Shown piece after piece: positions 27,660-59,766 of a DNA stretch of 64,000 nt. The DNA is taken from assembly GCA_963931655.1 (NCBI GenBank), contig OZ007036.1, positions 319,783 to 383,782 of the forward strand, given 5' to 3'. The translations under genes and the position numbers were made by a program. Within the stretch, counting starts at the first letter, position 1; each line of letters opens with the position of its first letter. Origin of the DNA: Butyricicoccus sp. Its GTDB lineage: Bacteria > Bacillota > Clostridia > Oscillospirales > Butyricicoccaceae. The notes under the pieces are model-generated. The model worked only from the letters and a program-made list of their open reading frames with translations. It did no database searches and had not been told where the DNA came from.

Positions 27660-27906
27660 TAGAGAAAATATGCTTCAAAAAATTAGAGAATATGATTTTA
27701 CAATGATAGATACAGCACTTTTTTTAAATTCTCACCCTAAAGATGCAATGGCACTAGACCATTTTCGTAAGGCAAGAGAAAAATATAATAAAGCAGTTGC
27801 AGATTTTGAAAGTAAATATGGAGTGCTTACCATGAAAAATATGGATAATAATTTACAGTGGACTTGGATAGATGACCCATGGCCTTGGGAAGGAGCTGAT
27901 AATTAA
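27652..27906 (+). CDS. cotJB: Spore coat protein CotJB
   Basis: DTALFLNSHP...WTWIDDPWPWE; stop overlaps the cotJC start (TAATG). Confidence 0.92.
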   Translation: MTNRENMLQKIREYDFTMIDTALFLNSHPKDAMALDHFRKAREKYNKAVADFESKYGVLTMKNMDNNLQWTWIDDPWPWEGADN

Positions 27907-28092
27907 TGTGGGGTTATGAAAAAAAACTACAATATCCTGTTAAAATTAAAAATCCAGACCCTGTTGCAGCAAAAATTATAATGACACAATTAGGTGGCCC
28001 AGATGGTGAGATGGGAGCAGCAACAAGATATTTAAATCAACGTTACACTATGCCATATAAAGAATGTAAAGCAATTTTAACTGATATAGGTA
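27906..28092 (+). CDS. cotJC: cotJC (Mn-catalase family) segment 1, aa 1-62
   Basis: MWGYEKKLQYPVKI...GGPDGEMGAATRYLNQR...ILTDIG; similarity stops abruptly at the core ATATAGGTA. Confidence 0.93.
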
Positions 28093-28115
28093 TATCAGTA
28101 TCTATAATGTACCTT
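28084..28115 (+). other. attL of element 1
   Basis: Core ATATAGGTA (28084-28092) followed by arm agtatctataatgtacctt (28097-28115), which is the inverse of 45002-45020. Confidence 0.88.
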
Positions 28116-28121
28116 TAATTA

Positions 28122-28601
28122 TTATTTTATATTTATAACTTTTAAACCGTTTTTAACTGCATATTTAGTGGTATAAGCAGTGCCACCGCTATTTTTATAC
28201 TGATATGCAATACATACAGATGATATATCAACAAGTTGCCTATCTCTTTTATAATAACAGCCACGACTATAAGCATCTTGGGTATATATAACCCTTGAGG
28301 CTTTATTTTTATGATTTTCAAGCTGTATTATTTCTTCTGTACCCCATGTTTTCTCATGTTCGTAATGATTTTGAAAAGGTAAAATCAGAATTAGTTGTAT
28401 ATTTGGGTATTTTTCTTTAAGAGAAATAATAACTTCAGCGGCAAGTGCGTCAAAACCTCTTGCACCACCAGTACAAAAATATAAATATCCGTTTTCTATA
28501 AGTAATTCAACAGTATCATATACAGTTGAGAATAAAATATCTTGATTTTCTTTTAATAATCGGTGTCCTGTGAAACAGACAGTTTTTTCTTTATAAATCA
28601 T
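28122..28601 (-). CDS. DUF1273/SLOG (YpsA-like) protein
   Basis: CFTGHR, TGGARGFDALAA, SGGTAYT. Confidence 0.8.
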   Translation of the reverse strand: MIYKEKTVCFTGHRLLKENQDILFSTVYDTVELLIENGYLYFCTGGARGFDALAAEVIISLKEKYPNIQLILILPFQNHYEHEKTWGTEEIIQLENHKNKASRVIYTQDAYSRGCYYKRDRQLVDISSVCIAYQYKNSGGTAYTTKYAVKNGLKVINIK

Positions 28602-28700
28602 AATATCACCTCTATTACATATAATTATATTATATGTAATACTTAGTTTTGTCCAGTATTACTTCCATCTAAAATAGAAGCAAAAGACGGAGGTGTACTT

Positions 28701-29054
28701 GTGAAAAAAGAAATAAATGTATTAGTAGGCAAAAATATAAGATTTTACAGAGAAAATCGTGGTTATACTCGTGAAAAATTAGCAGAATTATTGAGTGTAA
28801 GTCCAAAGTTTTTATATGATTGTGAAGTTGGTAGTGTGGGTATATCTCTTTCTACATTAAAAAAGGTTTGTGAAATTTTAGGTGTTTCTGCTGATTGCTT
28901 ACTTTGGGATAATAAAAATGAAAAATTAGATATTTCAGAGCGTTTGAAACATATACCATCTGAATATATTGAAATAATTGAAAAACTAATACAAAATCAA
29001 CTCGAAATTATCGCTATCGCCACAAAAGAACCTCAAAAGAAAACAAGAAATTAA
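28701..29054 (+). CDS. XRE-family HTH regulator
   Basis: IRFYRENRGYTREKLAELLSVS...LKKVCEILGVSADCLL. Confidence 0.85.
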   Translation: MKKEINVLVGKNIRFYRENRGYTREKLAELLSVSPKFLYDCEVGSVGISLSTLKKVCEILGVSADCLLWDNKNEKLDISERLKHIPSEYIEIIEKLIQNQLEIIAIATKEPQKKTRN

Positions 29055-29140
29055 AAAAGATGCCGTAAATGGCATCTTTTTTTTGTTGACTTTAGTTTTT
29101 TCGGGACGATACTATAATAGAAAAATGGCGGTGATTAATT

Positions 29141-29488
29141 ATGACAGCGTATGACGTACTGTATAAGGGTTTTAAAAAGTGGTATGGCGTTTTTGTAGGT
29201 ATGCAGATGAAGTATATCGGCACTACTTATATTGATTTTGATGGATTTTGGGAAGATGTTCAAGAACTTAAAATGGACGGTCTTGTGATAGATACAGAGC
29301 CGCCGAAAATTGTGGGTTTAGCGGGATTAGAAGGTATAACCTATTCAAAATGGGAGGTGTTTGAAAAACTTAAGAATAAAAGTTTTTCAACGGGATATAA
29401 ATATTTTACTTTAAGTACAAGTCAGTATGATGAAATGTTTTTGCTATATGGGTATAAAAACAAAGAAAGAAATGCTAAAAAGTTTTAA
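29141..29488 (+). CDS. Hypothetical protein
   Basis: 115-aa ORF with GCGGTGA RBS; no motif recognised. Confidence 0.55.
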   Translation: MTAYDVLYKGFKKWYGVFVGMQMKYIGTTYIDFDGFWEDVQELKMDGLVIDTEPPKIVGLAGLEGITYSKWEVFEKLKNKSFSTGYKYFTLSTSQYDEMFLLYGYKNKERNAKKF

Positions 29489-29543
29489 ATTACAGAAAAA
29501 ATCGCACGATTTTTATATTTCAGTATATTTTAAGATGTAGGAA

Positions 29544-29891
29544 GTGTTAGATATGAGTTTTAAAGCAGATTTAGAGCAATTTTTCGAGAGCGAACAGACA
29601 GACTATGAATATAAGTTTAGTTATGATGTTGAAAATCTAGTACGTATAGATTATTTGAAATATATAAAATTAAATAAGGCAAATAATAACTTTGAATATC
29701 ATAATTTTCTTTGTTGGAAGATTGATGGTGAGATTAGGAAAGGTTTAAGTCTTTACGGTGATTTAGAACCGGAATGGGAGTGGTTACGTTACTACTATAA
29801 GGTAGAAACGGAAAAAGACATAGATTTTTCTTCTTATGAACCGTTTAGATTATGGGTACTCTTAGATTTTATTTTACAACTTAGCGAATAA
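29544..29891 (+). CDS. Hypothetical protein
   Basis: 115-aa acidic ORF followed by a terminator-like hairpin; no motif recognised. Confidence 0.5.
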   Translation: MLDMSFKADLEQFFESEQTDYEYKFSYDVENLVRIDYLKYIKLNKANNNFEYHNFLCWKIDGEIRKGLSLYGDLEPEWEWLRYYYKVETEKDIDFSSYEPFRLWVLLDFILQLSE

Positions 29892-30026
29892 GGATACGCT
29901 CCATTTTGGGGCGTTTTTTTATTGTCAAATTATAATAATACGCATGTAAGATGACAAAAGAGTACATGTGTGTTCATATGACTACAGTTGATTTTATATT
30001 CATATGAAATTAATAAAAGGTGGTAA

Positions 30027-30802
30027 ATGAAGATGAAATCTAAAAAAATATATGTGCGTGTAAGTGATAAACGCTATGAGTTTTTGGTAAATAAATCTGA
30101 AGTCGCATATACACTGTGGCAACATTCGGTTAAAGTTGGAATGGCGGGTTATAGTGAAAAGTTTAACAGATTTTTCCATACTATATAACTTATTTCGGGA
30201 ATAAGATTTTTTTAGTAAATCCTATTGAAGGTTGGGTTAAGGCATTTAAGAGAAGCGGAAAATTAAGAAAAAAGAAAATAAATGGTATTTTAACAGGTGT
30301 TATCAATCATAAACGTGTAGTTTTAGCAGCAACAAGCGAAGGGTTATATGTACCGCTTATTGAAGAAAACACTTTTTTTGGTTTAAAAGAAATACAGCCT
30401 ACATATTTAGCACAAAAAGATAACAAAAAATCAGAACGTAAGAAAAAACGTGAGAAAGGTTTAAAGTCAAAGGAAAAACCTTGGCTTACAACAACGTTAG
30501 ACAAGATAGGTAATTCCACTTTTACTATTAAAACACATTCTATGATAGCGCTTATGATATTTGGGCTTGAGGTTATGAAATACGGCGTCATGGAAGGCAA
30601 TAGTATTTTTACTATAGACCACATAAATGGAATACATAATGATAATAATATCGAAAACCTACAGCTATTAACAAGAATATCGAATGATAAGAAAAGAAAT
30701 AAACCGCAAAATTGGTATTTAGATTATTTTATTTATTGGGATACAAGAGTAAGACAAGCAAGGATAAATCAAGAATATTTGGATTTTAGAAGAAGAATCT
30801 GA
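30027..30802 (+). CDS. HNH endonuclease (apparent frameshift at ~30172)
   Basis: TIDHINGIHNDNNIENLQLL HNH motif. That frame is open from about 30176 without a start codon and joins ATG 30027 (AAAGGTGG RBS) if one T is added to the T5 run at 30171-30175. Confidence 0.7.
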
Positions 30803-30880
30803 TTGAAATTTAATTTAGTAAATGAAAAAAGTGATTATTGCCGATTTGCGTTGCAGTAATCACTTTAATATTTGATAAAT

Positions 30881-31804
30881 TTAAATCTTTCCGGAATAAA
30901 AATTATATAGAGTTTGTAATGTCTTGTATTTATAATCTGTTTCAATATCCAGTTTAGATAGGACTTCTTCTGATAAAGGTATGTCTATATTAACATTTTT
31001 TTCTTTAGTAATTTGGGCTGTCATAACTTGTAGTTCTTCTTTTATTTTTATTAGTTTATATGTTTTCAATATTTCACTTATTTGTGATAGATTATTCAAA
31101 TCGGTTTCGATTGCGTTGAAAGGGATACAGCCAACTTGAATATTTTTAGTTAAAACCTTTTTTAAATCTTCTAATTTAGAATATTTTGTTAAAATTATTT
31201 TATCAGTAAGCCATTCAAAATGAACATCTTCAAATACATATTTTGGGAAGTAATTTAATGAAAATAAATCCGCAATAATACCTATAATCGGCAAATATGT
31301 TTTACTATTCAATTGAGTATCAGTTTTATAAGTTCTAACATTAAAACCGTTTTCTTGCGACAGTTCAAGTATAATATTTAAGCCGTTTAGTAATTCTCTC
31401 ATATTTGAAGTGACTTCTTCAGGTGAATAACCTTGGTTTTCATAATGATTTTTAGCGTCGTCTAATGCTTTCCATGCACGGTATGAGAAACCATATTTTT
31501 CAAAAGGTGCATACTTAGAAGAATCGTCATGAACTGCAGCGTTGTCATAACCTAAAAGCCAACTTTCGGAAACTCCAAATGCTTCAGCTATTTTTTGTAT
31601 ATGTTTTTGTCGTGGTTGTATATCTTTTTTTAGCCAGTTATCAACCGCTTGAGGAGAAACCCCTGCTACTTTACCGATATCGCTATAAGATAAACCTTTT
31701 TTCTTATTTAATTTTTCCAATAATTCTGAGTTCTTAGGTTTATATGGAGATTTCGGGGACATTAAAGATATTAGATTTTTTGCAAAATTACTATTTTTTA
31801 TCAT
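30881..31804 (-). CDS. Phage-repressor-like XRE HTH protein with large C-terminal domain
   Basis: LSYSDIGKVAGVSPQAVDNW...IAEAFGVSESWLLGY; divergent from the 32062 gene cluster. Confidence 0.75.
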   Translation of the reverse strand: MIKNSNFAKNLISLMSPKSPYKPKNSELLEKLNKKKGLSYSDIGKVAGVSPQAVDNWLKKDIQPRQKHIQKIAEAFGVSESWLLGYDNAAVHDDSSKYAPFEKYGFSYRAWKALDDAKNHYENQGYSPEEVTSNMRELLNGLNIILELSQENGFNVRTYKTDTQLNSKTYLPIIGIIADLFSLNYFPKYVFEDVHFEWLTDKIILTKYSKLEDLKKVLTKNIQVGCIPFNAIETDLNNLSQISEILKTYKLIKIKEELQVMTAQITKEKNVNIDIPLSEEVLSKLDIETDYKYKTLQTLYNFYSGKI

Positions 31805-31851
31805 ATATAAACACCTCTTTTAAATAAGAATACCAGACATATGCAATTACG

Positions 31852-31965
31852 TCAATAAAAAATTGATAATATATAATATATCTATTTTAAATTGAATATT
31901 ATCCTTGCTTACAATAAAATATCAATTTTAATTTTAAATTATAAAACATATCAATAAAAAATTGA
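31852..31965. promoter_or_regulatory. Two identical palindromic operators in the divergent control region
   Basis: TCAAT-AAAAA-ATTGA at 31852-31866 and at 31951-31965. Confidence 0.6.
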
Positions 31966-32061
31966 AGAAAAGAGTTGCGGAGCAAAATACCGTATGATAT
32001 CATAAACACATCAAGAACGTTCTGATAAAAAATAAAATCTAATTGTTAGAAAGGTGTATAA

Positions 32062-32724
32062 ATGATGAATAGTGTTATTTTAGAGGCAAAAGGTGTACTG
32101 ATAAATTATTCTGAGATGTTAAAAAATGCCAAACAAAAACAAAAAGGTATTAAGATGGTAAATAATGAGTGGAGAAAATTAAGTGCAGATATTATTGACC
32201 GCTCTTTTTATAATATCATTTATGCTGGAGTTAGAGTTTTAAATGCTTGCAGAAAACCTTTCGATTTTCAAAAATATTTTGATAGTTTTGATATAAAACT
32301 GGCTGATAATTATGAAAGTCGTAAAAGTTTGCATAATTTTAAGGTTCTTTGGGATTTTTACGCAGATGAAAAGATTAAGCATGTTGTCGATATCTTTATG
32401 GAATATATAAACGATAATATAGATGATATATGTCAGTTTAATGAACAAACATTTGCAATGTGGATTTCATATAAAGTAAAAGAAGATGATTATAATTTTG
32501 ACCGTACTTATAACGATTACTTTAAGGCAACTGTTTCTGAAATACTCAATTTGTTGGAGGTAGATATTTTTTGTAGTAATAATGATTGTGAATACTGTGA
32601 ATGTTGTGAATATTTTAACACCGTTTGGCATAATTTCACATGTGATGAAGATTGTATTGATATTATAGAGTGCCATTATCCAGAAGTTTATCAGAAAATC
32701 GTTAATAGTGCATTCAATGTATAA
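32062..32724 (+). CDS. Hypothetical protein
   Basis: 220-aa ORF, RBS GAAAGGTG, Cys-rich C-terminus. Confidence 0.6.
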   Translation: MMNSVILEAKGVLINYSEMLKNAKQKQKGIKMVNNEWRKLSADIIDRSFYNIIYAGVRVLNACRKPFDFQKYFDSFDIKLADNYESRKSLHNFKVLWDFYADEKIKHVVDIFMEYINDNIDDICQFNEQTFAMWISYKVKEDDYNFDRTYNDYFKATVSEILNLLEVDIFCSNNDCEYCECCEYFNTVWHNFTCDEDCIDIIECHYPEVYQKIVNSAFNV

Positions 32725-32740
32725 TAAGGAGGATGTTTTT

Positions 32741-33388
32741 ATGAAAAAGTTAAATTATGAGCAGAAATCAGTGGTTTTTGAAGATTGTATATCACAAATT
32801 AAAATATCTCTTTGGGGATATATCACAGAACTTACTGATATCATTGATGAAGCAAGAGCAGCGTACGGTAATAGAGATTGTATTAATCTTGCTTATGCAG
32901 CGGCAGATTCTTTATTCCAAACACTAGGTATTGATACAAGTTTTATGAATAATCCACAATATAAAAATTGTATTGATGAATGCTATAGTGAGTTTGCATA
33001 TACAAAAAAATGGGTTAAAGATAATCTGTTACTTTTAACTGAAGAAATGTACGGTTATAAAGATTTAATTGAAGCATATGAAAAAGAATACGCTGATAAT
33101 ATTGATTGGCTATATAATAATATAAATCTTGTTATGCATAAGGACAGAAAATGCAAAGAGTTATGGTCTTTAGGTAGAATTATTCAAGAAAAAGTCGGAA
33201 GAAATCCACTTCAGTTAAAAGAGTTTTTTGATAAATGCAGTGATATTGAAAAGGTAAAATATTATATGGGTTTTGTATCGCTATGTGCATTTATAAGTTA
33301 TTTTCATATCGGAGATTGCATGGAAGAAATTAGAGAAGATAGTGGTTTTAAAAAATATACTATGGTTTTAGGACATGAAAACTTATAA
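32741..33388 (+). CDS. Hypothetical protein
   Basis: AAGGAGG RBS before ATG 32741; followed by a terminator-like hairpin. Confidence 0.65.
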   Translation: MKKLNYEQKSVVFEDCISQIKISLWGYITELTDIIDEARAAYGNRDCINLAYAAADSLFQTLGIDTSFMNNPQYKNCIDECYSEFAYTKKWVKDNLLLLTEEMYGYKDLIEAYEKEYADNIDWLYNNINLVMHKDRKCKELWSLGRIIQEKVGRNPLQLKEFFDKCSDIEKVKYYMGFVSLCAFISYFHIGDCMEEIREDSGFKKYTMVLGHENL

Positions 33389-33564
33389 TTTGCTTATATA
33401 TAATCTTTATTATAGAATAAAAATGCGAAAACTAGAAGGTTTATTATAATCATCTAGTTTTTTTATATCTAAAAATAATTTTTAGCTAAAAATATTTTAA
33501 ATCTACAGTTATAACTACAGTTAAAATAATATTAATGTGAAATTACATGAAGAAGGTGTTCGGT

Positions 33565-33723
33565 ATGAATAATCAGATTGACTCACTGCATGATTTTGCA
33601 TATATCGGTATTACTTATATGGGTATGAGTGAAGAAGAAAGTTATAAATGGGCTAATGATATGATAGAACTCATAAGAAATTGTATGATGAATTATATAA
33701 ATGGTGATAATCAAAGTTTATAA
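33565..33723 (+). CDS. Small hypothetical protein (52 aa)
   Basis: Translated by hand: MNNQIDSLHDFAYIGITYMGMSEEESYKW...; GAAGGTG RBS. Confidence 0.4.
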   Translation: MNNQIDSLHDFAYIGITYMGMSEEESYKWANDMIELIRNCMMNYINGDNQSL

Positions 33724-33747
33724 ATTGTATTTGAAAGCGGTGATTTT

Positions 33748-33900
33748 GTGGGACGTTTTTTTGAAGTTAATTGTCCATATTGTGGTTATGTGTTGCCGGC
33801 ATTACCACACTATAAAAATCAAGGACTAATTTTAGTGTTATGTAGAAAATGCGGTCGCTCCTGTTATATTAATCAAGGGAAAGCATTAAAGAGGTTTTAA
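33748..33900 (+). CDS. Small zinc-ribbon protein (50 aa)
   Basis: Translated by hand: VGRFFEVNCPYCG...LCRKCGRSC; two CxxC pairs; GCGGTGA RBS. Confidence 0.5.
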   Translation: MGRFFEVNCPYCGYVLPALPHYKNQGLILVLCRKCGRSCYINQGKALKRF

Positions 33901-33932
33901 AATTAGAAATTATATTAAAAATAAAATGAATT

Positions 33933-34211
33933 ATGGAGGATTATTGTATTATGGAAGAGAAAGATTTAGATTATTTAAGTTTACTAGAAGATGAAGACTG
34001 TTTAGTTGATGAAAAAGAGATACTTCCGTCGTTTAGTTGCAACACAAGATTATTGCACCGTTTGGCATATATAAAGCGTTGTTTAAGGCTGTTAGCGTTA
34101 AACACTATGGAAGAACATACAAAAATAGATGCAATTCGTTTGCAAGATGAAATTGATAAAATAGTTGTAATATATAGTCTGGATTGTGTTGATGATTACC
34201 TTTTGGGATAA
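33933..34211 (+). CDS. Hypothetical protein
   Basis: 92-aa ORF; no motif recognised. Confidence 0.4.
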   Translation: MEDYCIMEEKDLDYLSLLEDEDCLVDEKEILPSFSCNTRLLHRLAYIKRCLRLLALNTMEEHTKIDAIRLQDEIDKIVVIYSLDCVDDYLLG

Positions 34212-34486
34212 CATAAAAAGCATCTAATGGAATTAAAATCCTATTAGGTGCTTTATTTATTTTTAATGAGTAGCATGTATAAACTATTACATAGACAATA
34301 TGCACAAAAACATATGTGAATATATAAAAAATATTCTACTTTTAATGGGTTGAAATAGACATAAATTATAACTGTTAGAGACATATATATAAGGAATAGT
34401 ATAAATCAAATCATTATATATGACTTTACTTATATGATGATTTATGTTATAATAAATATCTTTAGTAAATAGTTAAGGGTGAAATA

Positions 34487-35332
34487 ATGAAAAATATAAT
34501 AGATGCTATAATAAATCTAGTAACTGATCCAAAAGTAGAGTTGGTTCGTCATTATTCTTATGTTAATCGTGCAAATAATATGGGTGATGCTCTTGAAGAA
34601 TACATAAAAGACTTGTTTGCAGGGACGGTAGATGAAACTGATGAGAACATAAGAAATAGTAAATTATCTGATGTTTTTTCTTATATGGGTAATGCAACAA
34701 ATCCTCCTGATAGTATGCTAAAAAATGGCGGAGATGCAATAGAAGTGAAAAAATTGCAGGGTATCAATGATTTGGCACTTAATTCATCACATCCTAAGCG
34801 TACTTTAAAAATAGATAATCCTAAAATTAATAGCCATTGTCGTGATTGTGAAAAATGGTCAGAGCGTGATATGCTTTATGTAATAGGTGTGTGTGATACA
34901 AAGAAGATAAAACAGTTGTGTATGGTTTATGGAACAGAATATTGTGCAGATATTGAAACATATACGAGAATAGAAAATGTAGTAAAAGAAGGGTTACAAA
35001 GTATAGAGAATGTGGAGTTAGCACAAACAAATGAGTTAGGTCGTTTGAATAAGGTTGACCCTTTGGGTATAACAAATATGCGAATTAGAGGTATGTGGAC
35101 AATAATGAATCCATTAAAAGTTTTCAATTATGTCTACATGCCCAATTCTTCTAAAACATTTAATTTTATGTGCTTGATTAATTCTGAAAAATACGCTACA
35201 TTAAGTAATATTAAAAATTTAGAGGGTTTTACAAATGAAGTACCAGATTTAAATATAAAAGATGTCAAAGTTAAAAATCCTAATAATCCCGCTCAATTAA
35301 TAGAGTGTAAGTTGATAACGTTTGCTATATAA
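34487..35332 (+). CDS. Type II restriction endonuclease, NgoPII family (GGCC predicted)
   Basis: [28 protein letters not shown]...[12 protein letters not shown]-like MRIRGMW; adjacent to an M.HaeIII-like methyltransferase. Confidence 0.85.
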
Positions 35333-35342
35333 GGAACATATT

Positions 35343-36323
35343 ATGAGTTTTAGAATTGTAAGTTTATTTTCTGGTGCTGGTGGTTTAGATTTAGGATTTG
35401 AAAAATCCGGATTTGAAATAGTAGCCGCAAATGAATATGATAAAAGCATATGGGCTACTTACGAGAAAAATCATAAAGCACCGTTAATTAAAGGTGATAT
35501 ACGTCAAATACCTTCTCAGACTTTTCCTGAATGTGATGGAATTATAGGTGGTCCACCTTGTCAATCATGGAGTGAGGCTGGTAGTCTTCGTGGTATAGAT
35601 GATCCAAGAGGGCAGTTGTTCTATGAATATATAAGGCTTATTAAAGATAAGCGACCAAAGTTTTTTCTTGCAGAAAATGTAAAAGGTATGATGGCTAACC
35701 GTCATAGTGAAGCGGTTGATGGTATTGTAAAACAATTTGAAGATGCTGGATATGATGTGTTTATAAAACTATTGAATGCGGCTGATTATGGTGTAGCACA
35801 AGACAGAAAACGAGTATTTTATGTGGGATTTAGAAAGGATTTATGGGTTGAGTTCGAGTTTCCTAAACAATATTCGTACAAACTTACTTTTAAAGATATT
35901 ATTTGGGATTTAAAAGATAGTGCTATTCCTGCTCTTGATAAAAATAAAACTAATGGTTCAAGATGTAATTTTTTAAACCATGAATATTTTACGGGTGCAT
36001 ATTCGACAATATTTATGAGTAGAAATCGTGTTCGTAGTTGGGATGAACCTGCTTTTACAGTTCAAGCAAGTGGTCGTCAATGTCAATTACATCCACAAGC
36101 ACCTAAAATGATAAAAGTTGATAAAAATGATTGTCGTTTTGTAGAAGGTTCAGAAAAATTATATAGAAGGTTGAGTGTAAGAGAAGCGGCAAGAGTTCAG
36201 GGGTTCCCCGATGACTTTGAATTTATATACACTAATCTGCAAGATGCTTATAAAATGATTGGTAATGCAGTACCAGTTGAATTAGCATATGCTATGGCAG
36301 AGCAAATAAAAAAATATTTATAA
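35343..36323 (+). CDS. C5 DNA methyltransferase, M.HaeIII/M.NgoPII-like
   Basis: [33 protein letters not shown]; TRD segment [12 protein letters not shown]...[14 protein letters not shown] closely resembles M.HaeIII. Confidence 0.92.
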
Positions 36324-36459
36324 TTTCATATACGATTTGTTGTTAGAAATAAAATATAGTTATATAAATATAAGATGGTAAAAACAAAAAGTTTTTATCA
36401 TCTTATTTTAATTTTGGGGTTTATTTAATTGTGTTTGTTAAAATTGAATATCGTTGTAT

Positions 36460-37191: not shown

Positions 37192-37360
37192 TCATATCTC
37201 CTCCATAATGTATAATATATTATAAAAATTGTACAATACTATATATAAAATTACAATTATTATCATTTGGTTGTAACTTATAAAAATATATGATAGTATA
37301 AAAATAGAATTGAATATTTTATAACTATTGAAATTAGTGGTAAAGAAAAGAGGATTTTAA

Positions 37361-49955: not shown

Positions 49956-49961
49956 CTAGCG

Positions 49962-50264: not shown

Positions 50265-50343
50265 TTAATTTATATTGATTGAGCTTTCGCTCGATAATAT
50301 ACTATGCAAGCTGAGATATAAAGTTGACTAAATTTTTGAAAAT

Positions 50344-51060: not shown

Positions 51061-51185
51061 ATCAAATTCACCCCAATCATTTACAATATTATATCAATTT
51101 GTAAAAAGCATATCAATTAGAAATATATTTATAAAAATATTTTTTAGTGTATAATGGTAGTAATAATGATAGGGAAGTGTTAATT

Positions 51186-51941: not shown

Positions 51942-51946
51942 AAAAA

Positions 51947-52720
51947 ATGTTAAATTATATAAAGGAAAGAATATATAAAAATCCATTACAAGTAGAATTA
52001 AATAAAATAGAAAAAATAGAAAATAAAATAATAAAAGAGCGAATTAATTATAAACCAAAAAATTTTAATATACCCGAAAAAGTAAATGATACTCTTAAAA
52101 AGGCATTTAATACAGCTTTTGACATTGTTTTTAGCAAAGGTACAAGTATAATAGAAAAAACATATGATAAATCTGAAAAAGAAAAGGATTTTTTGATAAG
52201 AGATTTTATATTTAATAACAATCCAAATAAAAAAGAAATCAAAAAGTTAAAAACTAAAAATATAAACAATATAGTATTAAGTACAGCAGAGGGCGTTGGA
52301 CTTGGTTTACTTGGTATAGGTTTACCAGATATAGTTTTGTTTGTAGGAATGATTTTAAAAGGTGTATATGAGATATCTATAAAATATGGTATAGATTATA
52401 ATTTGCCTGAAGAAAGAATGTTTATTTTAAAACTTTTACAAGCATCTATGCAAAAAGGAGAGGAATTTGTAAATGTAGATAATCAATTAAATGATATTAT
52501 AAAAAATGATTTTATAGAGAGTGATGAAGATATAAAAAATCAAATAACAAAAACATCAAATGTATTTGCAGATGAAATGTTAATTATGAAGTTTATACAA
52601 GGTTTACCTATTATAGGTATTATAGGAGGGCTTTCAAATCCAGTATATTATAATAAAATAATTAGTTTTGTTGAGTTAAAGTATAGGAAGAGATACTTAT
52701 ATAAAAAATTACATCATTAA
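51947..52720 (+). CDS. EcsC family protein
   Basis: EGVGLGLLGIGLPDI, KFIQGLPIIGIIGG. Confidence 0.7.
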   Translation: MLNYIKERIYKNPLQVELNKIEKIENKIIKERINYKPKNFNIPEKVNDTLKKAFNTAFDIVFSKGTSIIEKTYDKSEKEKDFLIRDFIFNNNPNKKEIKKLKTKNINNIVLSTAEGVGLGLLGIGLPDIVLFVGMILKGVYEISIKYGIDYNLPEERMFILKLLQASMQKGEEFVNVDNQLNDIIKNDFIESDEDIKNQITKTSNVFADEMLIMKFIQGLPIIGIIGGLSNPVYYNKIISFVELKYRKRYLYKKLHH

Positions 52721-52762
52721 ATTTATCTTTTTACCTCTTGCTATAAGGAGAGTTTAGCGATT

Positions 52763-53332
52763 ATGAAAAACAAGATTATCATCATATTGATAGTTTTAGT
52801 TAGCATTTTAATATTTGCAGGGGGTAAAAATTATATTTTAAACGATAGTAAAACCGTAGAAATAGGGTTTGAAAATATTGGTGAGCTTGTAACACAATCG
52901 GTATATTGTACAGAAGTAAATGTTATAGAGGCTTCAAGAGAATTATGGGGTATTGAAATACCATTTACGCAAAGCAAGTATATTTATAGCTATGATGTTA
53001 TAATAAAAGCGGGTTATGATTTTGAAGATATAAAATGGAGTGTCAAAGATAATGTTATAACGGTTATATTGCCAGAGGTTAAAATTTTAAGCAATGAAAT
53101 AGTTGATGGTTCATTTAAGGTGTATCATGAGCAAGAAAGTATATTTAGACCTATTTCCTTAGCAGAGAATAATAAAGCTCAAGAAAATTTAAAAGAAAAT
53201 GCAAAACAAAGTGCAATAGATAACGGTTTGTATGAAAATGCAACAGAAAATGCAAAAACAATACTTAAAAGCTTTTTTTCAAATGCATATGATTTAAAAG
53301 AATATGAAATTAAATTCAAAAAACAGCAGTAA
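52763..53332 (+). CDS. DUF4230 domain protein
   Basis: N-terminal TM, IGELVT, IKAGYDF, VILPEVKILSNEI. Confidence 0.75.
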   Translation: MKNKIIIILIVLVSILIFAGGKNYILNDSKTVEIGFENIGELVTQSVYCTEVNVIEASRELWGIEIPFTQSKYIYSYDVIIKAGYDFEDIKWSVKDNVITVILPEVKILSNEIVDGSFKVYHEQESIFRPISLAENNKAQENLKENAKQSAIDNGLYENATENAKTILKSFFSNAYDLKEYEIKFKKQQ

Positions 53333-53334
53333 AA

Positions 53335-54129
53335 TTAATTACTGCTGTTTTGGTTATTATGATGACCGTTTTGTTTGCCATATTGGTGATGACCATTGTT
53401 ATTATTTTGATTACAATTTTGACCTTGACCAGAATAGCTGGTTGAGTTTGTGTCATATTGGTTATCATTTTGTTTTACACTGGAAATTAAATCGTTAATT
53501 TCTCGCATTGACATTTGTTTTACTTCATCAGAAGTTAAATTTATACCTAACTCTTTAAGTTGTAAATATGCTTTATATTTGCCATATGATAGCCCCAGCG
53601 AATGAGCATCAGAAACTTCATCAGAATTTAAAGAATAACAATGCATATTTTGATTTTGAGAAGTGCAATGAGATACATATTCAAGTATATTTTCGCCTTG
53701 ACTTTGGTCTATTGGCAGTACAGCAATAGACAAAGTTTCATCATTAGATAGGCAGTTTAAAACAGTTTCACTTTCAAGAATTTCATCAATAGCAGAGTTA
53801 TAATCCTTAAACATAATATTCAGAGAGTCAGAAAGAATTTCACCATCAGAATTATAAGAGTCAACCGATATTATTTTATCAAAACGGTTAACATCAAGCT
53901 CAATAGAAGGGTTAATGTCTATGCTAATAACAGATGTAGGGGTAAAATATTCTTTATATCCGCCAAAGCCTATAAGGGCTAAACATGCAAAAGTTGCACA
54001 CATTGGACGTAAAATACTGCGTTTATGATGCGTTTTACTTTCGATAAAAGTTATAGTTTGACTTTTAAGGTTATCATCTGCATGTATGTTATCAAAAGCT
54101 GATTTAATTTTATTCTGCATAGTCATCAC
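53335..54129 (-). CDS. Anti-sigma factor, RsgI-like
   Basis: Single TM, ISIDINPSIELDVN motif, low-complexity N/Q/H tail. Confidence 0.75.
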   Translation of the reverse strand: MMTMQNKIKSAFDNIHADDNLKSQTITFIESKTHHKRSILRPMCATFACLALIGFGGYKEYFTPTSVISIDINPSIELDVNRFDKIISVDSYNSDGEILSDSLNIMFKDYNSAIDEILESETVLNCLSNDETLSIAVLPIDQSQGENILEYVSHCTSQNQNMHCYSLNSDEVSDAHSLGLSYGKYKAYLQLKELGINLTSDEVKQMSMREINDLISSVKQNDNQYDTNSTSYSGQGQNCNQNNNNGHHQYGKQNGHHNNQNSSN

Positions 54130-54595
54130 CTCCTAAAGTGGTTTTAAGAAGCTGTTTACCTCTATTTAGATATGTATATATAGTATTTACATTTTTATTT
54201 AATATTTTTCCGATTTCTGGTGCAGAATAACCTTCATAATAATGTAAATATATAACTTTTCTATATTTTTCGGGTAGTGCTAAAACAGCCTCCAATACTT
54301 CTTTATTATCATCATCTGGTATATCAGCTTGCTCTATAACTTCATCTAAAGATACAGTTTTGGCGCGAAAAAAGCTTTTTAATAAATCTTTACAAGCATT
54401 TATAGTAACACGAACAAACCAAGCCTTTTCATGTTCATAGTTTTCAAATACTGCGGAGCTAAGGGCATATTTTAAAAATACATTTTGAAATATATCTTCA
54501 GTATCAGCATAATTCTTTAAATGTATTAAGCAAATACGTCTAACTGTATCAGCATATTTTTCGATTGCTTGAGTTATTTCCCATTCGCTCCGCAT
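54110..54595 (-). CDS. ECF RNA polymerase sigma factor
   Basis: DTEDIFQNVF, AWFVRVTINACKD, region 4 LYLHYYEGYSAPEIGKIL-like. Confidence 0.92.
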   Translation of the reverse strand: MRSEWEITQAIEKYADTVRRICLIHLKNYADTEDIFQNVFLKYALSSAVFENYEHEKAWFVRVTINACKDLLKSFFRAKTVSLDEVIEQADIPDDDNKEVLEAVLALPEKYRKVIYLHYYEGYSAPEIGKILNKNVNTIYTYLNRGKQLLKTTLGGDDYAE

Positions 54596-54907
54596 AAAAC
54601 TACCCCCTAATTATCTATGCTTGCCTAGTTGTCTACCTGTGCCATCTTTTGGACAAGTACCCATGTTATCACAAATACCATCACCATTTTCATCTACAAA
54701 GTACGAGCCGTTGCCACAAGTACCTTTGTTATCACAAATACCATCACCGTTTTCATCTACAAAGTATAAACCGTTGCCACAAGTACCTTTGTTATCACAA
54801 ATACCGTCACCATTTGCATCAACAAAATATAGACCATTGCCACCAGTACTAATGTTATCACAAACACCATCGTTGTTTAAATCGACATAATTTGTGGTTT
54901 TATTAAG

Positions 54908-55961
54908 TGATAAATTGTCAAGTCAAAAGCGACAGTTGATGAAAGAAAACTTCATAGGCAGATTTCCACTTGAGACATTTTCGAGGTCTAGAATTTATAA
55001 GAAATAAAGCTTTTTGTAAATCATTATAGGAAACTTTAGCTAAATCAGTTTTTTTAGGAAAGAATTCTCGTAATAAACCATTTGAATTTTCATTTGTGCC
55101 CCTTTGCCAAGATGAATAAGGGTCAGCAAAATAAAATGGAATATTCAAATCACGTTCAATATTTAAATAACATGCAAACTCTTTACCTCTATCTACAGTT
55201 GCAGTTTTAAAAGCTTTTTTAGGCAGAATATTAGCAACAAATCTTACTGCATTTTCCATTGAAGATGCAGTTCTATCTGGAATTTTTATAGCAATATACA
55301 TTCGTGTTTTTCGTTCTGCAAATGTAGCAAAACAGCCTTTACTCTCACCACGACTAGAAACAATTGTATCTAATTCCCAATGACCAAATGTTGTTCTTTT
55401 CTTAATTTCTTTTGGTCTTTTAGATATTGATTTGCCAATATTGAAACGTCCTCTTGTTTCTTTTGGTTTATGTCTCTTTCCCTTATGTCTAAGTAATTTT
55501 AAACCATTTGTTGAGATTATACCTTTATAAATCCAACGGTATATCGTTTTGAAACTAACTACTCCTTTGGTCAGTGTATTTGCAATCTGTTCTGGAGAAT
55601 ATGTGCTGTTTAAACCTCTTTCTATCTGCTTAACCAAAGCTTTTGAATATTTTCCTTTTGGTTTTGAGTTTTTTCTTCGAATACAGTATTTTTTATGGGC
55701 AGTTTCTGCATTATACATTTGCTCATTATTGCGTTTTAATTCTCTTGCAACGGTACTATGATGTCTACCTATTTCTTTTCCTATTTTACGGGCTGAATAT
55801 CCCAATTTTTTTAATACCTCTATACGGCTTCTTTCAAATGTGGTAAGATGTTTATAGCTCATAAGTAAACTCCTTTTGTGTTATGTTGTGTGGTAACTTC
55901 ATTTTACACTATAAAGTTTACTTGTGGGCTTTTTTGTCGCACTTAATTTTACAATCCATCA
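54908..55961 (-). mobile_element. IS30-family insertion sequence (1,054 bp)
   Basis: Imperfect 26-bp terminal inverted repeats (54908-54933 and 55936-55961) and a 2-bp target duplication AG (54906-54907 and 55962-55963). Confidence 0.9.
54918..55862 (-). CDS. IS30-family transposase
   Basis: HLTTFER, GHWELDTIV, TVDRGKEF, WQRGTNENSNGLLREFFPK. Confidence 0.95.
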   Translation of the reverse strand: MSYKHLTTFERSRIEVLKKLGYSARKIGKEIGRHHSTVARELKRNNEQMYNAETAHKKYCIRRKNSKPKGKYSKALVKQIERGLNSTYSPEQIANTLTKGVVSFKTIYRWIYKGIISTNGLKLLRHKGKRHKPKETRGRFNIGKSISKRPKEIKKRTTFGHWELDTIVSSRGESKGCFATFAERKTRMYIAIKIPDRTASSMENAVRFVANILPKKAFKTATVDRGKEFACYLNIERDLNIPFYFADPYSSWQRGTNENSNGLLREFFPKKTDLAKVSYNDLQKALFLINSRPRKCLKWKSAYEVFFHQLSLLT

Positions 55962-56261
55962 AGTTTATATGTTTGATTTTGCCTACCATGATAAGCAAAT
56001 GCACTTGCTGTACCAGCTGTAATAACTAATGCAGAGATTATAACTCCAGAAACTAACTTTTTCATAATAATAATTCCTCCTGATAAATAGTGTTTTAAGT
56101 GGTTTCATATATAATACGACTGACAAATATAAATCCATTCAAAAAAATAAAAAAATTTTTTTGTTAAAATTTTTTAACAAAATATATTGTCATTTATTGA
56201 AAATTAAAAACTTTAAATATATACTTATTTATATAGTTTATATTGAATTGGGGGAATAAAT

Positions 56262-57818
56262 ATGAAAAAAGGTATGGCGGATACAATAAAAGATGCTAAA
56301 CTATTGCCAATAAGACTTATATTAGGTGGATTATTAGTTGGTATTGTATCAGGTTTTATTGTTATGCTTTATCGTCTTGTTTTGCAATATGCAGAACAGG
56401 TTTTGGAATTTATTGTAGATTTTATATCAGGCTCTATAGTAAAGGAAATTGTTTGGATAGCAATTTTAATGATAATAGCGGTTATTGTGGCTAAATTAAT
56501 AAAATTTGAGCCTATGATTTCGGGAAGTGGTATCCCTCAGATAGAGGGAGAAATGACAGGTAAATTAAATCAAACATGGTATAAAGTGTTACCTGCTAAA
56601 TTTATCGGTGGGTTTTTATGTTTGTTATCTGGTCTTTCATTAGGTAGAGAAGGTCCATCTATTCAGCTTGGTGCTATGAGTGGAAAAGGTATATCAAAAT
56701 TATTATCTTTGGGTAAAACTGATGAAAAATATATGTTAACATGTGGGGCAAGTGCAGGTTTAGCGGCAGCATTTAATGCACCGCTTGCAGGTGTTTTGTT
56801 TTCGCTAGAGGAAATACATAAAAATTTCTCAGTATCTGTTTTGATATCAGTTATGACTGCATCTGTTACAAGTGATTATTTATCTTCTAGCATATTAGGT
56901 AATGACCCTGTGTTTAATTTTTCGATTACACAAGACCTTCCTATGAAATATTATGGTTTAATAATTGTTTTAGGAATAATACTCGGATTTTTTGGTGCAT
57001 TTTATAACTGGTTTACATTGAAAATACAATCTTTATATCAAGAATGTAAATTTTTAAATCAAACAACTAGAGTTATGATACCATTTTTTATTGCAGGTAT
57101 TTTAGCATTTACTGTACCTGTACTTCTTGGCAGTGGTGGCAATTTAATAAAAATGATAACAACAACTAAGTTAGGTATAACAGTTGCAGTGTTAATTCTT
57201 ATAGGAAAATTTATTTATTCAGGTGTGAGTTTTGGTTCTGGTGCACCAGGAGGAATATTTTTTCCAATGCTAGTTTTAGGCGGGTTTACAGGTGGAATTT
57301 TTGCAATGATTTGTATAAATATCTTTGGACTTCCAGCCGAATATTTAAATAATTTTGTTTTATTAGCTATGGCAGGATTTTTTACAGCGATTGTTAGAGC
57401 ACCACTTACAGGCATTATTTTGATTTTCGAGATGACAGGTTCACTCAGTCAGCTTACATCTTTACTTCTCATATCTGTATCAGCATATATAGTAGCAACT
57501 CTTTTAAAATGTGAGCCTATATATGAAAGTTTGTTAACAAGGATTTTAAAGCGTCAAGGACAAAAAATAGATAACAAAGAAAAAGTGTTAAAAGAATATA
57601 TAATAATGCATAATTCACCTATTGATGGAATGAAGATAAGTGAAATTGATTTACCTTCAAATGTGTTAATAGTGGCTATTCGTAGAGGAAGTGAAGAAAT
57701 TTTACCAAATGGTGATACAAAACTATATGCCAGTGATGTGTTATTGGTAATGTCTAATGAAAATGGTGATATATATGATAGTTTAAACAATCTGTGCACA
57801 GAAAACAGTATATGTTAA
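56262..57818 (+). CDS. ClC family H+/Cl- exchanger with TrkA-C domain
   Basis: GSGIP, GREGPSIQ, GAPGGIFFPM, AIVRAPLTG; C-terminal IRRGSEEILPNGDT. Confidence 0.92.
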   Translation: MKKGMADTIKDAKLLPIRLILGGLLVGIVSGFIVMLYRLVLQYAEQVLEFIVDFISGSIVKEIVWIAILMIIAVIVAKLIKFEPMISGSGIPQIEGEMTGKLNQTWYKVLPAKFIGGFLCLLSGLSLGREGPSIQLGAMSGKGISKLLSLGKTDEKYMLTCGASAGLAAAFNAPLAGVLFSLEEIHKNFSVSVLISVMTASVTSDYLSSSILGNDPVFNFSITQDLPMKYYGLIIVLGIILGFFGAFYNWFTLKIQSLYQECKFLNQTTRVMIPFFIAGILAFTVPVLLGSGGNLIKMITTTKLGITVAVLILIGKFIYSGVSFGSGAPGGIFFPMLVLGGFTGGIFAMICINIFGLPAEYLNNFVLLAMAGFFTAIVRAPLTGIILIFEMTGSLSQLTSLLLISVSAYIVATLLKCEPIYESLLTRILKRQGQKIDNKEKVLKEYIIMHNSPIDGMKISEIDLPSNVLIVAIRRGSEEILPNGDTKLYASDVLLVMSNENGDIYDSLNNLCTENSIC

Positions 57819-57822
57819 TTAT

Positions 57823-57856
57823 AAAAGCCAAAAATCATTAAGATTTTTGGCTTTTT
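57823..57856 (+). terminator. Rho-independent terminator
   Basis: aaaagccaaaaatc / gatttttggcttttt. Confidence 0.7.
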
Positions 57857-57927
57857 CTATTAAAGTAATAGTAAAGTGTTATTTATTCATATAATATATT
57901 AAATTTATTTGAGAGGGGTAAATAATA

Positions 57928-58047
57928 ATGACAAAAAGTACATCTATTATAAATGTTTTTAAAAATGGAACAGATAAAATTTCTAAATCTGATTTCACAA
58001 AAAAATGGATTGAGCTTGTAAATCAAATGGAAAAAAACAATAAATGA
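57928..58047 (+). CDS. 39-aa protein translationally coupled to recombinase 2 (candidate directionality factor)
   Basis: Translated by hand: MTKSTSIINVFKNGTDKISKSDFTKKWIELVNQMEKNNK; GAGGGG RBS; ATGA overlap with the recombinase start; CATATAAT at 57888-57895. Confidence 0.6.
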   Translation: MTKSTSIINVFKNGTDKISKSDFTKKWIELVNQMEKNNK

Positions 58048-59591
58048 AAGTAGCTATTTATTGTAGATTGTCCGAGGAAGATAAAAACAAGAAATTTGAA
58101 ACTGATGATAGTAATAGTATACAAAACCAAAAATCAATGTTAATACAATATGTTATTGAGCATGATTGGGAGCTTTATAATATATATAGCGATGATGATT
58201 ATACAGGAGCAGATAGAAAACGTCCAGAATTTAACAGACTTCTTAAAGATGCAGAAAATCACAAGTTTGACATTATACTTTGTAAAACTCAATCACGCTT
58301 TACTCGTGAATTAGAGCTTGTTGAAAAATATATACATGGTTTATTTCCATTATGGGGTATACGTTTTATTAGTGTAGTGGATAATGCTGATACAGATAAT
58401 AAAGGAAATAAAAAATCACGTCAAATAAATGGTCTTGTAAATGAATGGTATCTTGAAGATATGTCAGAAAATATAAAAAGTGTACTTACAAACAGACGTA
58501 AAAACGGTTATCATATTGGTTCATTTGCACCTTATGGCTATAAAAAAGACCCTGATAAAAAAGGACATCTTATTATAGATAATGAGGCTGCAAAGGTTGT
58601 TCGTGAGATATTCATTTTATTTTCAAAGGGATATGGTAAAACTTATATAGCAAGAATGTTAAATGATAAAGGTATACCAAATCCAACTGAATATAAACGT
58701 TTACAAGGTTATAAACAAGCAAATAAGCATAATAGCACACTTTGGAAATACTTTACAATATCCAATATATTAAAAAATGAAGTATATATAGGAAATCTTG
58801 TCCAAGGTAAATATGGAAGTGTATCTTATAAGACCAAGAAAAATAGACCTCGCCCCCAAAGTGAATGGTATAAAGTTTGTGGGGTACATGAACCTATAAT
58901 TGAGCGGGATTTATGGGAGAGAGTACAAAATTTAATAAATCAAAAAAATAGACCTTTTGAAGTAGGAAAAATAGGTTTATTTGCTGGTAAAGTTAGATGT
59001 ATAAACTGTGGTTATACAATGCGTTCATCTAAAACTAAAAAAATAAACTATCTTAAATGCTCAACTAAGCATATCGCTAAAAATTCATGTATTGGTTCTT
59101 TTATATCAGTTGCAAAGCTTGAAAAAATAATTATTGATGAAATAAATAAATTTTTATCTGAATTTTTAGATAAAGATATGCTAGAAAGTAATATTCATTT
59201 TTGTAATGATTTTGAAAAAGAAAGAAATCAACTTATTTCAGATATAAAATTATATCAAAAAAAGGTTGATGAGTATTCAAAATATATAAAACAATTATAT
59301 ATAGATAAAATAAAAGGAATTATAAGTGAAAGTGATTATATTTCATTTTCAAATGAGTTTACTTTAAATAGAGAGCGCTTGAAAAATATAATAAATGAAA
59401 ATCAAAAACAGCTTGATGATATAGAAAAAAATATTAAATCTGGTATAAATCAAAAAGAGACAATAGAAAAATATATAAATTTAAAAAATTTAAACCGAGA
59501 GATAGTTGAAACACTAATAGATTATATATATGTTGGAAAACGAATAAAAGGAACAAAAGAAATTCCGATTGAAATTCATTGGAATTTTTAA
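58044..59591 (+). CDS. Large serine recombinase of element 2
   Basis: AIYCRLSEED, CKTQSRFTR, recombinase domain, CINCG...C...C zinc ribbon, coiled coil; stop abuts the att arm. Confidence 0.95.
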   Translation: MKVAIYCRLSEEDKNKKFETDDSNSIQNQKSMLIQYVIEHDWELYNIYSDDDYTGADRKRPEFNRLLKDAENHKFDIILCKTQSRFTRELELVEKYIHGLFPLWGIRFISVVDNADTDNKGNKKSRQINGLVNEWYLEDMSENIKSVLTNRRKNGYHIGSFAPYGYKKDPDKKGHLIIDNEAAKVVREIFILFSKGYGKTYIARMLNDKGIPNPTEYKRLQGYKQANKHNSTLWKYFTISNILKNEVYIGNLVQGKYGSVSYKTKKNRPRPQSEWYKVCGVHEPIIERDLWERVQNLINQKNRPFEVGKIGLFAGKVRCINCGYTMRSSKTKKINYLKCSTKHIAKNSCIGSFISVAKLEKIIIDEINKFLSEFLDKDMLESNIHFCNDFEKERNQLISDIKLYQKKVDEYSKYIKQLYIDKIKGIISESDYISFSNEFTLNRERLKNIINENQKQLDDIEKNIKSGINQKETIEKYINLKNLNREIVETLIDYIYVGKRIKGTKEIPIEIHWNF

Positions 59592-59618
59592 AATTTGTTC
59601 TTATATGATTGCAGCAGA
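59592..59618 (+). other. attR of element 2
   Basis: Arm aatttgttcttata (59592-59605) plus core GCAGCAGA (59611-59618). Confidence 0.85.
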
Positions 59619-59766
59619 GCAAAAGGCTCGTACAACTTATGATAATTTATTAAGACTTATTGATGACCCAGATGTTAGAGACCCTATTAAATTTTTACGT
59701 CAAAGAGAAGTAACACACTTCCAACGTTTTGGTGATACAAAAAGGATATTATCAAACACAAAATAA
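59619..59766 (+). CDS. cotJC: cotJC segment 3, aa 136-174 (then 10 possibly non-cotJC codons)
   Basis: EQKARTTYDNLLRLIDDPDVRDPIKFLRQREVTHFQRFG, then DTKRILSNTK*. Confidence 0.9.

Follow-up and report, generated by a model that had tools for sequence, protein, structure and literature searches.

The window analyzed here is a 64-kb stretch of metagenome assembly from an uncultured chicken-gut Butyricicoccus, an organism common in chicken-gut metagenomes (at least 9 studies). It carries a cotJA-cotJB-cotJC operon whose third gene is interrupted, inside its coding sequence, by large islands. The cotJ operon is expressed in the mother cell in B. subtilis. In the window, cotJA (27351..27659, + strand; Pfam CotJA, 1.8e-15) and cotJB (27616..27906, + strand; Pfam CotJB, 1.8e-26; started by gene callers at 27652, giving 84 aa) lead into cotJC segment 1 (27906..28092, + strand), which holds codons 1-62 plus 1 nt, includes the ligand E35 and ends in ...ILTDIG. 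Segment 2 (45031..45250, + strand; TEELAH...EDLAA) holds codons 63-135 with ligands E65 and H68, and segment 3 (59619..59736, + strand; starting EQKAR) holds codons 136-175 with ligands E136 and H169. Between them lie two non-phage islands, E1 (28093..45030, 16,938 bp) and E2 (45251..59618, 14,368 bp). An original prediction for this locus had placed segments 1 and 2 and the start of segment 3 at the same positions, and its two insert sizes and two direct-repeat cores were borne out by repeat comparison; the length of segment 3, given there as roughly 117 bp onward from 59619, is corrected to 118 nt, with its end at 59736.

The prediction counted three segments and two elements and took a 555-nt, 184-aa open reading frame (ORF) as the finished gene. 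The last nine codons and stop of that ORF (59737-59766, ...TKRILSNTK) are in fact sequence of a third island, E3. The ORF ends in ...HFQRFGDTKRILSNTK and a stop codon, but intact CotJC proteins from related genera continue with ...HFQRFGDALRVVQDHLDSKNYYAFNP... to about 205-220 aa, and their tail (ALRxVQxNLDxKNYYAYNP) is encoded nowhere in the window. The exact 184-aa protein, which corresponds to an E1-free, E2-free, E3-bearing form, was absent from a 15-billion-protein collection, and we rejected it as the product. The missing end was found on contig L081, part of a 1,999,770-bp hifiasm long-read metagenome contig that was retrieved via the deformylase gene at 62143-62553 and is identical to window positions 52143-64000 across all 11,858 overlapping bases. 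On L081, E3 measures 11,912 bp in all, with its left 4.3 kb in the window (59737..64000) and 7,648 bp more beyond it. Directly after the E3 recombinase gene, L081 continues with the cotJC end, ...GDALRTVQENLDAKNYYAYNPEFDVQPVPQPRNMPRI and a stop, as a fourth segment of 108 nt encoding ALRTVQENLDAKNYYAYNPEFDVQPVPQPRNMPRI. Joined, the four segments (187 + 220 + 118 + 108 nt) make 633 nt and 210 aa, and the nearest intact proteins in a 5.8-billion-cluster collection are likewise 210 aa, at 90-91% identity and 100% coverage.

The reconstructed protein has the features of a CotJC/Mn catalase encoded downstream of cotJA and cotJB. Even the three-piece join is in frame and matches Pfam Mn_catalase at 7e-52. 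The joined protein aligns without a break across both window junctions with the L. plantarum Mn catalase 1jku, and E35, E65, H68, E136 and H169 fall on the 1jku ligand positions, as had been proposed; the E136 codon is completed only across junction 2. A tblastn search with an intact relative returned exactly segments 1-3 in the window, at E values of 1e-22 to 4e-40, and no other copy there. The split match is therefore far beyond chance. The three insertions lie at codons 60-63, 134-136 and 173-175, in the motifs DIG/TEE, LAA/EQK and FGD/ALR.

Each island carries a full-length large serine recombinase (LSR) gene at its right end, as the original prediction had stated for the two inserts then recognized. 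LSR1 (43333..44931, + strand; 532 aa) has Pfam Resolvase (1e-34), Recombinase (1e-20) and Zn_ribbon_recom (4e-7) domains; LSR2 (58044..59591, + strand; 515 aa) has the same three domains and a DUF4368 tail, and LSR3 (L081 18015-19472; 485 aa) also has all three. Their R-x-S motifs read YARVS, YCRLS and YSRQS, respectively, and matches to the phrog_95 integrase family range from 1e-125 for LSR1 to 4e-90. The recombinase is in each case the last gene of the island, runs in the direction of cotJC and adjoins the next cotJC piece, an arrangement that recurs for LSR1 and segment 2 in 13 of 13 contigs encoding LSR1. The stop codons of LSR1, LSR2 and LSR3 lie 90, 19 and 25 nt before the right-hand copy of the respective core.

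The boundaries of the islands are 8- or 9-bp direct repeats. Core 1, ATATAGGTA (9 bp, + strand), is present at 28084-28092 (attL1) and 45022-45030 (attR1); core 2, GCAGCAGA (8 bp, + strand), at 45243-45250 (attL2) and 59611-59618 (attR2); and core 3, TTTGGTGAT (9 bp, + strand), at 59728-59736 (attL3) and L081 19498-19506. When attP sites were rebuilt by swapping the arms, they showed dyad symmetry at 25/29 (attP1), 21/29 (attP2) and 17/29 (attP3) positions with centers inside the cores, compared with a mean of 11.9 and a maximum of 20 among 20,000 random window placements; symmetry of the attB sites was lower, at 13-14/29. Large serine recombinases need a non-palindromic central dinucleotide, and the predicted crossovers are GG at 28089-28090, GA at 45249-45250 and GA at 59734-59735. 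Since LSR1-3 share only 24-29% identity with one another, and the cores and arms are unrelated, the islands are served by three separate recombination systems; for the same reasons, we rejected the idea that one recombinase serves all three sites.

A small ORF of 39-66 aa with a good ribosome-binding site lies directly 5′ of each recombinase gene. These are orfX1 (43088..43288, + strand; 66 aa), which has a strong ribosome-binding site and ends 44 nt upstream of LSR1, orfX2 (57928..58047, + strand; 39 aa), whose stop overlaps the LSR2 start (ATGA), and orfX3 (48 aa), upstream of LSR3 beyond the window. We consider all three to be candidate directionality factors. They have no Pfam or PHROG match and no mutual similarity; an absence of family matches is usual for directionality factors, as with the 42-aa GirX (PMC5595907). 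An element at the same site as E3 in another lineage (L103) carries different cargo, including riboflavin and biotin operons (L103 1-7590), and its LSR3 and the preceding small ORF are 88% and 74% identical in amino acid sequence to LSR3 and orfX3, with DNA homology to E3 ending just upstream of orfX3. Because the two genes are kept together in an element with different cargo, orfX3 is a real gene linked to its recombinase, and orfX3-LSR3 is maintained as a module. This would correspond to the portable attL-rdf-int-attR "SSR unit" known for skin, SPbeta and ICEBs1 (PMC6957869).

Related lineages provide the empty sites. In a metagenome-assembled genome of Ca. Butyricicoccus avistercoris (L001), the sequence is collinear with the window at 88% nucleotide identity to exactly 28092, then from 45018 to 45250 and then from 59611 to 59762. 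L001 does not carry a wholly intact gene, since a different, ParA-carrying element occupies site 3 there and the frame reads on into it. In a sister lineage (L096/L097) all three sites are empty, and although the DNA is 7-8% diverged, the CotJC protein is identical to the four-piece reconstruction. The predicted product thus has the layout of uninterrupted orthologues, with joints precisely at the direct repeats. Over codons 1-175, the window and L001 differ by 33 nucleotide changes spread over all three segments and by 1 amino acid change (dN 0.005, dS 0.345, dN/dS 0.014). With this ratio and an unchanged sister-lineage protein despite the DNA divergence, the cotJC pieces are under strong purifying selection, and the relaxed selection that would have spoken for decay of the segments was not seen.

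Site 3 (FGD/ALR) is the most used landing site. It is held by at least 4 different elements, with different left ends, in several related lineages, and the ORF tails there read ...GDTKRILSNTK, ...GDAKRILPNTNSG.. into ParA, ...GEPKR and ...GDASQEDCSK... (window 59728-59762; L001 10520-10551; proteins P0046, P0052, P0126 and P0135). Site 1 varies within the species: contigs L099-L102, one of them 248 kb long and all about 99.5% identical to the window, lack E1 and carry E2 and E3. E1 is therefore polymorphic, and the number of excisions needed depends on the strain. Position 45036 distinguishes the two groups, with A in 5/5 E1-bearing DNA contigs and G in 4/4 E1-free contigs and in the sister lineage. 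This single-nucleotide polymorphism (SNP) lies in the B′ arm of attB1, 6 nt beyond the right edge of core 1; it might influence the integration of E1 or may be no more than a marker of the clade that acquired this element.

In DNA, the split gene is the prevailing form. The interrupted arrangement was present in every contig read that encodes the exact CotJA (17), LSR1 (13) or the deformylase (14), and these contigs derive from long- and short-read assemblies of several samples. A 53-aa ORF that is possible only with both E2 and E3 in place occurs in at least 42 contigs (42 plus variants), and the segment-4 ORF fragment occurs in at least 77 (77 plus variants); every DNA contig of the lineage carries both E2 and E3. 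In evenly covered DNA-type runs, contigs pass through attL1 and attR1/attL2 without a joint. Public runs were viewed as assembled contigs rather than raw reads, so that rare forms (attB in DNA, attP circles, partly joined intermediates) are invisible in them. Neither the 28092-to-45031 joint nor the attP back-joint was found in contigs of X1, X4, X5, X15, X36, X38 and X39, a result that is uninformative about rare forms, and attB2 had no exact match in the JGI metagenome contigs.

RNA-type libraries gave the opposite picture. In X25, a declared oligo-dT metatranscriptome, a 1185-nt contig at a depth of 10.9 runs through 27361-28083, 45022-45250, 59611-59736 and segment 4, skipping exactly 16,938 bases at site 1. 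With 99.41% identity to the virtually excised window against 92.66% to the element-free lineage, it can be assigned to the lineage in whose DNA E2 and E3 are always present. In X37, which reads out only highly expressed genes of the adjoining chromosome and is therefore treated as RNA-like on the basis of its patchy, expression-like coverage pattern, a 2172-nt contig (depth 14.8) has its 5′ end at 27320, 31 nt before the cotJA start codon, and shows the joints at sites 1 and 2; E1 has no coverage at all. A contig of X28, an RNA-Seq library, joins segment 3 to segment 4. Genes of E1, E2 and E3 are also represented among the X25 transcripts. At the contig level, joined cotJC is thus seen at three junctions in X25, at junctions 1 and 2 in X37 and at junction 3 in X28, in samples other than those that supplied the DNA. 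At position 45036 the X37 joined contig has A and the X25 contig has G. Given this linked SNP, the X25 contig probably reflects an E1-free strain from which E2 and E3 were excised, and the X37 contig probably reflects excision of E1 as well. We rejected joining at the RNA level, or template switching by reverse transcriptase, as the source of these contigs: 12-17 kb separate the pieces, joined cotJC is the dominant assembled form in three independent studies, and the anatomy of recombinase attachment sites is present.

Both 5′ contig ends, 27320 in X37 and 27361 in X25, lie just downstream of a candidate mother-cell promoter of cotJ (27275..27302, + strand), a match to the sigmaK-type consensus AC-N17-CATAGAATA (CATAnnnTA) that has been identified by consensus only. 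There are 3 such matches on the + strand of the 64 kb and 7 on both strands, and one stands directly 5′ of the RNA contig ends. A second sigmaK-type motif is present at L081 19618-19645, directly past the cotJC stop and before the next gene, a Cys-rich gene of 296 aa that starts at L081 19679 and has no Pfam match. Because the X37 contig extends about 950 nt beyond the cotJC stop, this gene is transcribed in the same samples.

We favor the interpretation that three independent, non-phage intervening elements of the skin/gin type are excised to rebuild cotJC, and would put its probability at roughly three in four. The central claim of the original prediction, assembly of a single cotJC through several independent excisions by serine recombinases, is supported, and in a stronger form than first put forward, with three recombinases and with joined transcripts in public RNA libraries. 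In the proposed mechanism, cotJC has been cut at three conserved motifs by three unrelated integrative islands, each with its own recombination unit at the right end; the unit would consist of a small ORF as candidate directionality factor, a large serine recombinase, and attL and attR sites with a shared 8-9-bp core. In cells expressing cotJ, each recombinase, probably helped by its small ORF, would pair its own attL and attR and exchange strands at a 2-bp crossover inside the core. Each island would leave as a circle and a scarless attB would stay behind, so that after three excisions a complete cotJC of 633 bp would encode a Mn-catalase-type coat protein of 210 aa. Because E2 and E3 are fixed and E1 is frequent, and because joined DNA was found in no assembly, the excised state would be limited to cells without descendants. 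This dead-end cell may be the sporulating mother cell: skin, SPbeta and gin offer the analogy, and in B. subtilis cotJ is a mother-cell operon. The excisions may also act as a regulatory AND gate, as suggested in the original prediction.

Several observations weigh against this interpretation. Mother-cell specificity rests on analogy; a consensus search of the window found no sigmaK-type motif upstream of the recombinase units, and no recombinase or orfX transcripts were detected in RNA-type contigs. The assembled contigs contain no attB in DNA, no attP circle and no partly joined intermediate, and contigs of 12 runs contain no attP back-joint, with the qualification that contigs drop rare forms. 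The RNA was not sampled together with the DNA. At position 45036 the X25 contig matches the E1-free strains, and its junction 1 may simply reflect such a strain; excision of E1 consequently rests on X37 and one linked SNP, and X37 documents junctions 1 and 2 in a library whose RNA nature was deduced from coverage rather than declared. Finally, an intact cotJC paralogue could still lie elsewhere in the 2-Mb genome.

An explanation that accepts the excisions and that we consider unlikely is that they are precise but ordinary mobile-element events, stochastic or stress-induced and of the TnpX type, with no tie to sporulation, so that cotJC is expressed only in a subpopulation without islands. The missing promoter motif upstream of the recombinase units fits this view, as does the polymorphism of E1, which must be mobile now or have been so recently. 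The recombinases also have relatives of the appropriate kind: the DUF4368 tail of LSR2 is typical of clostridial transposon recombinases, and the catalytic domain of LSR1 is closest to that of a C. difficile conjugative-transposon recombinase (3g13, 2e-43). However, Pfam and PHROG scans found no conjugation or mobilization genes in E1, E2 or E3, and among the proteins tested, which did not include every small ORF, integrases were the only PHROG matches, with no phage structural, packaging or lysis genes. The Pfam content of the islands consists of regulators, sensors, transporters and a restriction-modification system and is not that of a prophage. Three independent stochastic excisions would seldom fall in the same cell, yet the cotJ transcripts that assembled are completely joined, with no contig reading through into E2 or E3. 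Loss in dividing cells would in addition leave element-free descendants, and none were seen for E2 or E3.

A second alternative, which we regard as quite improbable, holds that the islands are plain insertions that inactivate cotJC and that the joined transcripts come from co-occurring island-free strains of the same species. The existence of E1-free strains and of the fully element-free L096/L097 lineage, the E1-free allele of the X25 contig, and the fact that RNA and DNA were never compared within one sample all lend it some substance. The element-free lineage is nonetheless only 92.2-92.7% identical, far from the X25 contig in its match to the window, and no DNA contig of the lineage lacks E2 or E3, whose diagnostic fragments number in the dozens as described above. 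An E1-free, E2-free strain that kept E3 would encode the 184-aa form, which is missing from the protein collection. Three RNA-type libraries, each from a different study, contain joined forms and the DNA runs viewed contain none, the X37 joined contig bears the E1-linked allele, and a dN/dS of 0.014 with changes in all segments speaks against a dead gene. That the split arrangement is an assembly or chimera artefact, a concern because the window derives from a metagenome assembly, has a negligible probability, given that the same junctions recur in the 2.0-Mb hifiasm long-read contig and several assemblies of short reads, as well as in Logan contigs from over 20 runs that belong to at least 9 studies.

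If programmed excision of three islands is accepted, a further question is whether the triple interruption is a used feature or a mere pile-up of selfish insertions at a safe site. We think the former possible but doubtful. On such a reading, the 43 kb of vegetative-only cargo, with its sensors, transporters and restriction-modification system and, in related elements, entire riboflavin and biotin operons, would be germline-restricted DNA that is removed from the mother-cell chromosome, and CotJC would act as a three-input AND gate or timer, an idea that we hold with the same reserve; CotJC synthesis would then report the firing of all three recombination units. Some of the cargo looks related to sporulation or core metabolism, including an A_ENA-type gene, an FtsW/RodA/SpoVE gene and, in the L103 element, the riboflavin and biotin operons.

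E1 carries a YpsA/SLOG gene, helix-turn-helix regulators, an NgoPII-type restriction enzyme with a Dcm methylase, a small serine resolvase, an AAA ATPase and three zinc-ribbon/BspA-type leucine-rich repeat (LRR) genes in addition to orfX1 and LSR1. The restriction enzyme and methylase (34487-36323, + strand) are among the few element genes with transcripts, which were found at 100% identity in the metatranscriptomes X25 and X27, and such a restriction-modification system could help to stabilize E1. The three paralogous zinc-ribbon and LRR genes (39002-42856, - strand, with 36460-37023, - strand) have common C-terminal ends, and several runs skip 207 bp between 39476 and 39684 and join 42321 to 39191 with 28 letters added. 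Both features suggest cassette variation, possibly linked to the nearby small serine resolvase/invertase, a gene that is broken in the variant L087.

E2 carries BlaI/BlaR1, a methyl-accepting chemotaxis protein, an Ena-like small protein, flavodoxin/ferredoxin, EcsC and DUF4230 genes, an anti-sigma/extracytoplasmic function sigma factor pair and a ClC channel, together with orfX2 and LSR2. The Ena-like gene lies at 49962-50264 (- strand), and its 95-98-aa counterpart in L099/L100 is flagged as PF26595 A_ENA (endospore-appendage-like) in precomputed annotations. A secondary insertion in E2 is an IS30-family transposase gene (54918..55862, - strand) with HTH_38 and rve domains. The IS30 copy is absent from E2 of the E1-free strain L099, and RNA contigs at its ends (loose ends at 54914 and 55960) run into different flanks; for these reasons it is a multi-copy insertion sequence that recently inserted in E2. 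Within the window, E3 contributes a BlaI/BlaR1 pair, the peptide deformylase gene (62143-62553) and a PNPOx-like gene, and beyond it an XRE regulator, MatE, MarR and PadR genes, the FtsW/RodA/SpoVE gene (L081 15626-16981), orfX3 and LSR3. The BlaI/BlaR1-type repressor and sensor-protease pairs of E2 (45369-47435) and E3 (59846-62013) have the same orientation and begin about 100 nt past attL. Because they are only 23-27% identical, the likeness of layout does not stem from recent duplication.

Characterized sporulation-gene rearrangements all involve one element per gene, but cotJC, only 633 bp long, needs three independent LSR excisions, and public metatranscriptomes already reveal its finished product in a gut anaerobe that has not been cultured. 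The conserved motifs of a mother-cell gene can evidently serve as a repeated landing pad for unrelated recombination units, and programmed DNA rearrangement is extended to chicken-gut Oscillospirales. Three new orthogonal integrase/attP/attB sets with candidate directionality factors should be useful parts for genome engineering, and the locus lends itself, as a natural system, to studying how multiple excisions within a cell are coordinated. For annotation, the lesson is that "manganese catalase" fragments of 44-140 aa are not to be taken for pseudogenes in genomes of this type.

Single elements have been characterized in sigK, spsM, spoVFB, spoVR, gerE, kamA and yabG (PMC5025042, PMC4191935, PMC5595907, PMC6957869, PMC10747680). 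Among the closest counterparts is gin, which interrupts gerE in Bacillus cereus ATCC 10987 and is excised by the GirC recombinase with the GirX directionality factor (PMC5595907). Like the islands described here, gin is a non-prophage island in a small mother-cell sporulation gene, with a large serine recombinase, a tiny partner ORF without a recognizable motif, a 9-bp core and scarless rejoining. It differs in being one element in its gene, whereas three unrelated units share one 633-bp gene in a Clostridia gut anaerobe, and the small ORFs are candidates that are dissimilar to one another. The skin element in sigK of B. subtilis and C. difficile, with SpoIVCA and Skr (PMC5025042, PMC6957869; survey, bioRxiv 10.1101/2022.02.25.481979), has a directionality-factor gene that overlaps the start of the recombinase gene, as orfX2 overlaps LSR2, and it is inherited through the spore while the rest of its cargo is not conserved. 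Its target is a sigma factor that drives late development rather than a coat protein, so failed excision at cotJC should produce a coat defect and not the sporulation block expected with skin; the cotJC islands also have no prophage remnants.

Excision of SPbeta by SprA and SprB rebuilds the spore-envelope gene spsM (PMC4191935, PMC5499854). The shared elements are a large serine recombinase and a directionality factor, for which the cotJC islands have candidates, and LSR2 is a distant, full-length relative of SprA/YokA (9dxh). SPbeta is, however, an active 134-kb phage with a second, stress-induced mode of excision, in contrast to islands without phage genes. The same target gene appears in one sentence of a preprint (bioRxiv 10.1101/2022.02.25.481979), according to which cotJC of Laceyella sacchari, a member of the Bacilli, is interrupted by a skin-like element. 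That case is a single element known from genome sequence, and the passage gives no evidence of joining. Full-text literature searches, which do not cover most subscription journals, found nothing else relevant on cotJC with intervening elements or recombinases and no report of several elements in one sporulation gene. The original prediction knew of no characterized arrangement of this kind, which agrees with these searches for multiple elements in a sporulation gene but must be qualified, for cotJC, by the Laceyella element.

Multiple interruptions are best known from heterocysts, where nif interruption elements divide nifBHDK into 13 parts in Calothrix sp. NIES-4101 (PMC11249958; survey, PMC4874684). 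There, too, a terminally differentiated cell can make the product only after several independent elements have left a single gene or operon. The phylum, cell type and genes are different, and XisA-type tyrosine and XisF-type serine recombinases and inversions are involved, as opposed to deletions that would be carried out by three LSRs. Given the heterocyst precedent, the cotJC case is a variation on a known theme. Its novelty lies in what it combines: a new target, three orthogonal LSR units within 633 bp, non-phage cargo islands, polymorphism among strains, and direct transcript evidence from an uncultured gut bacterium.

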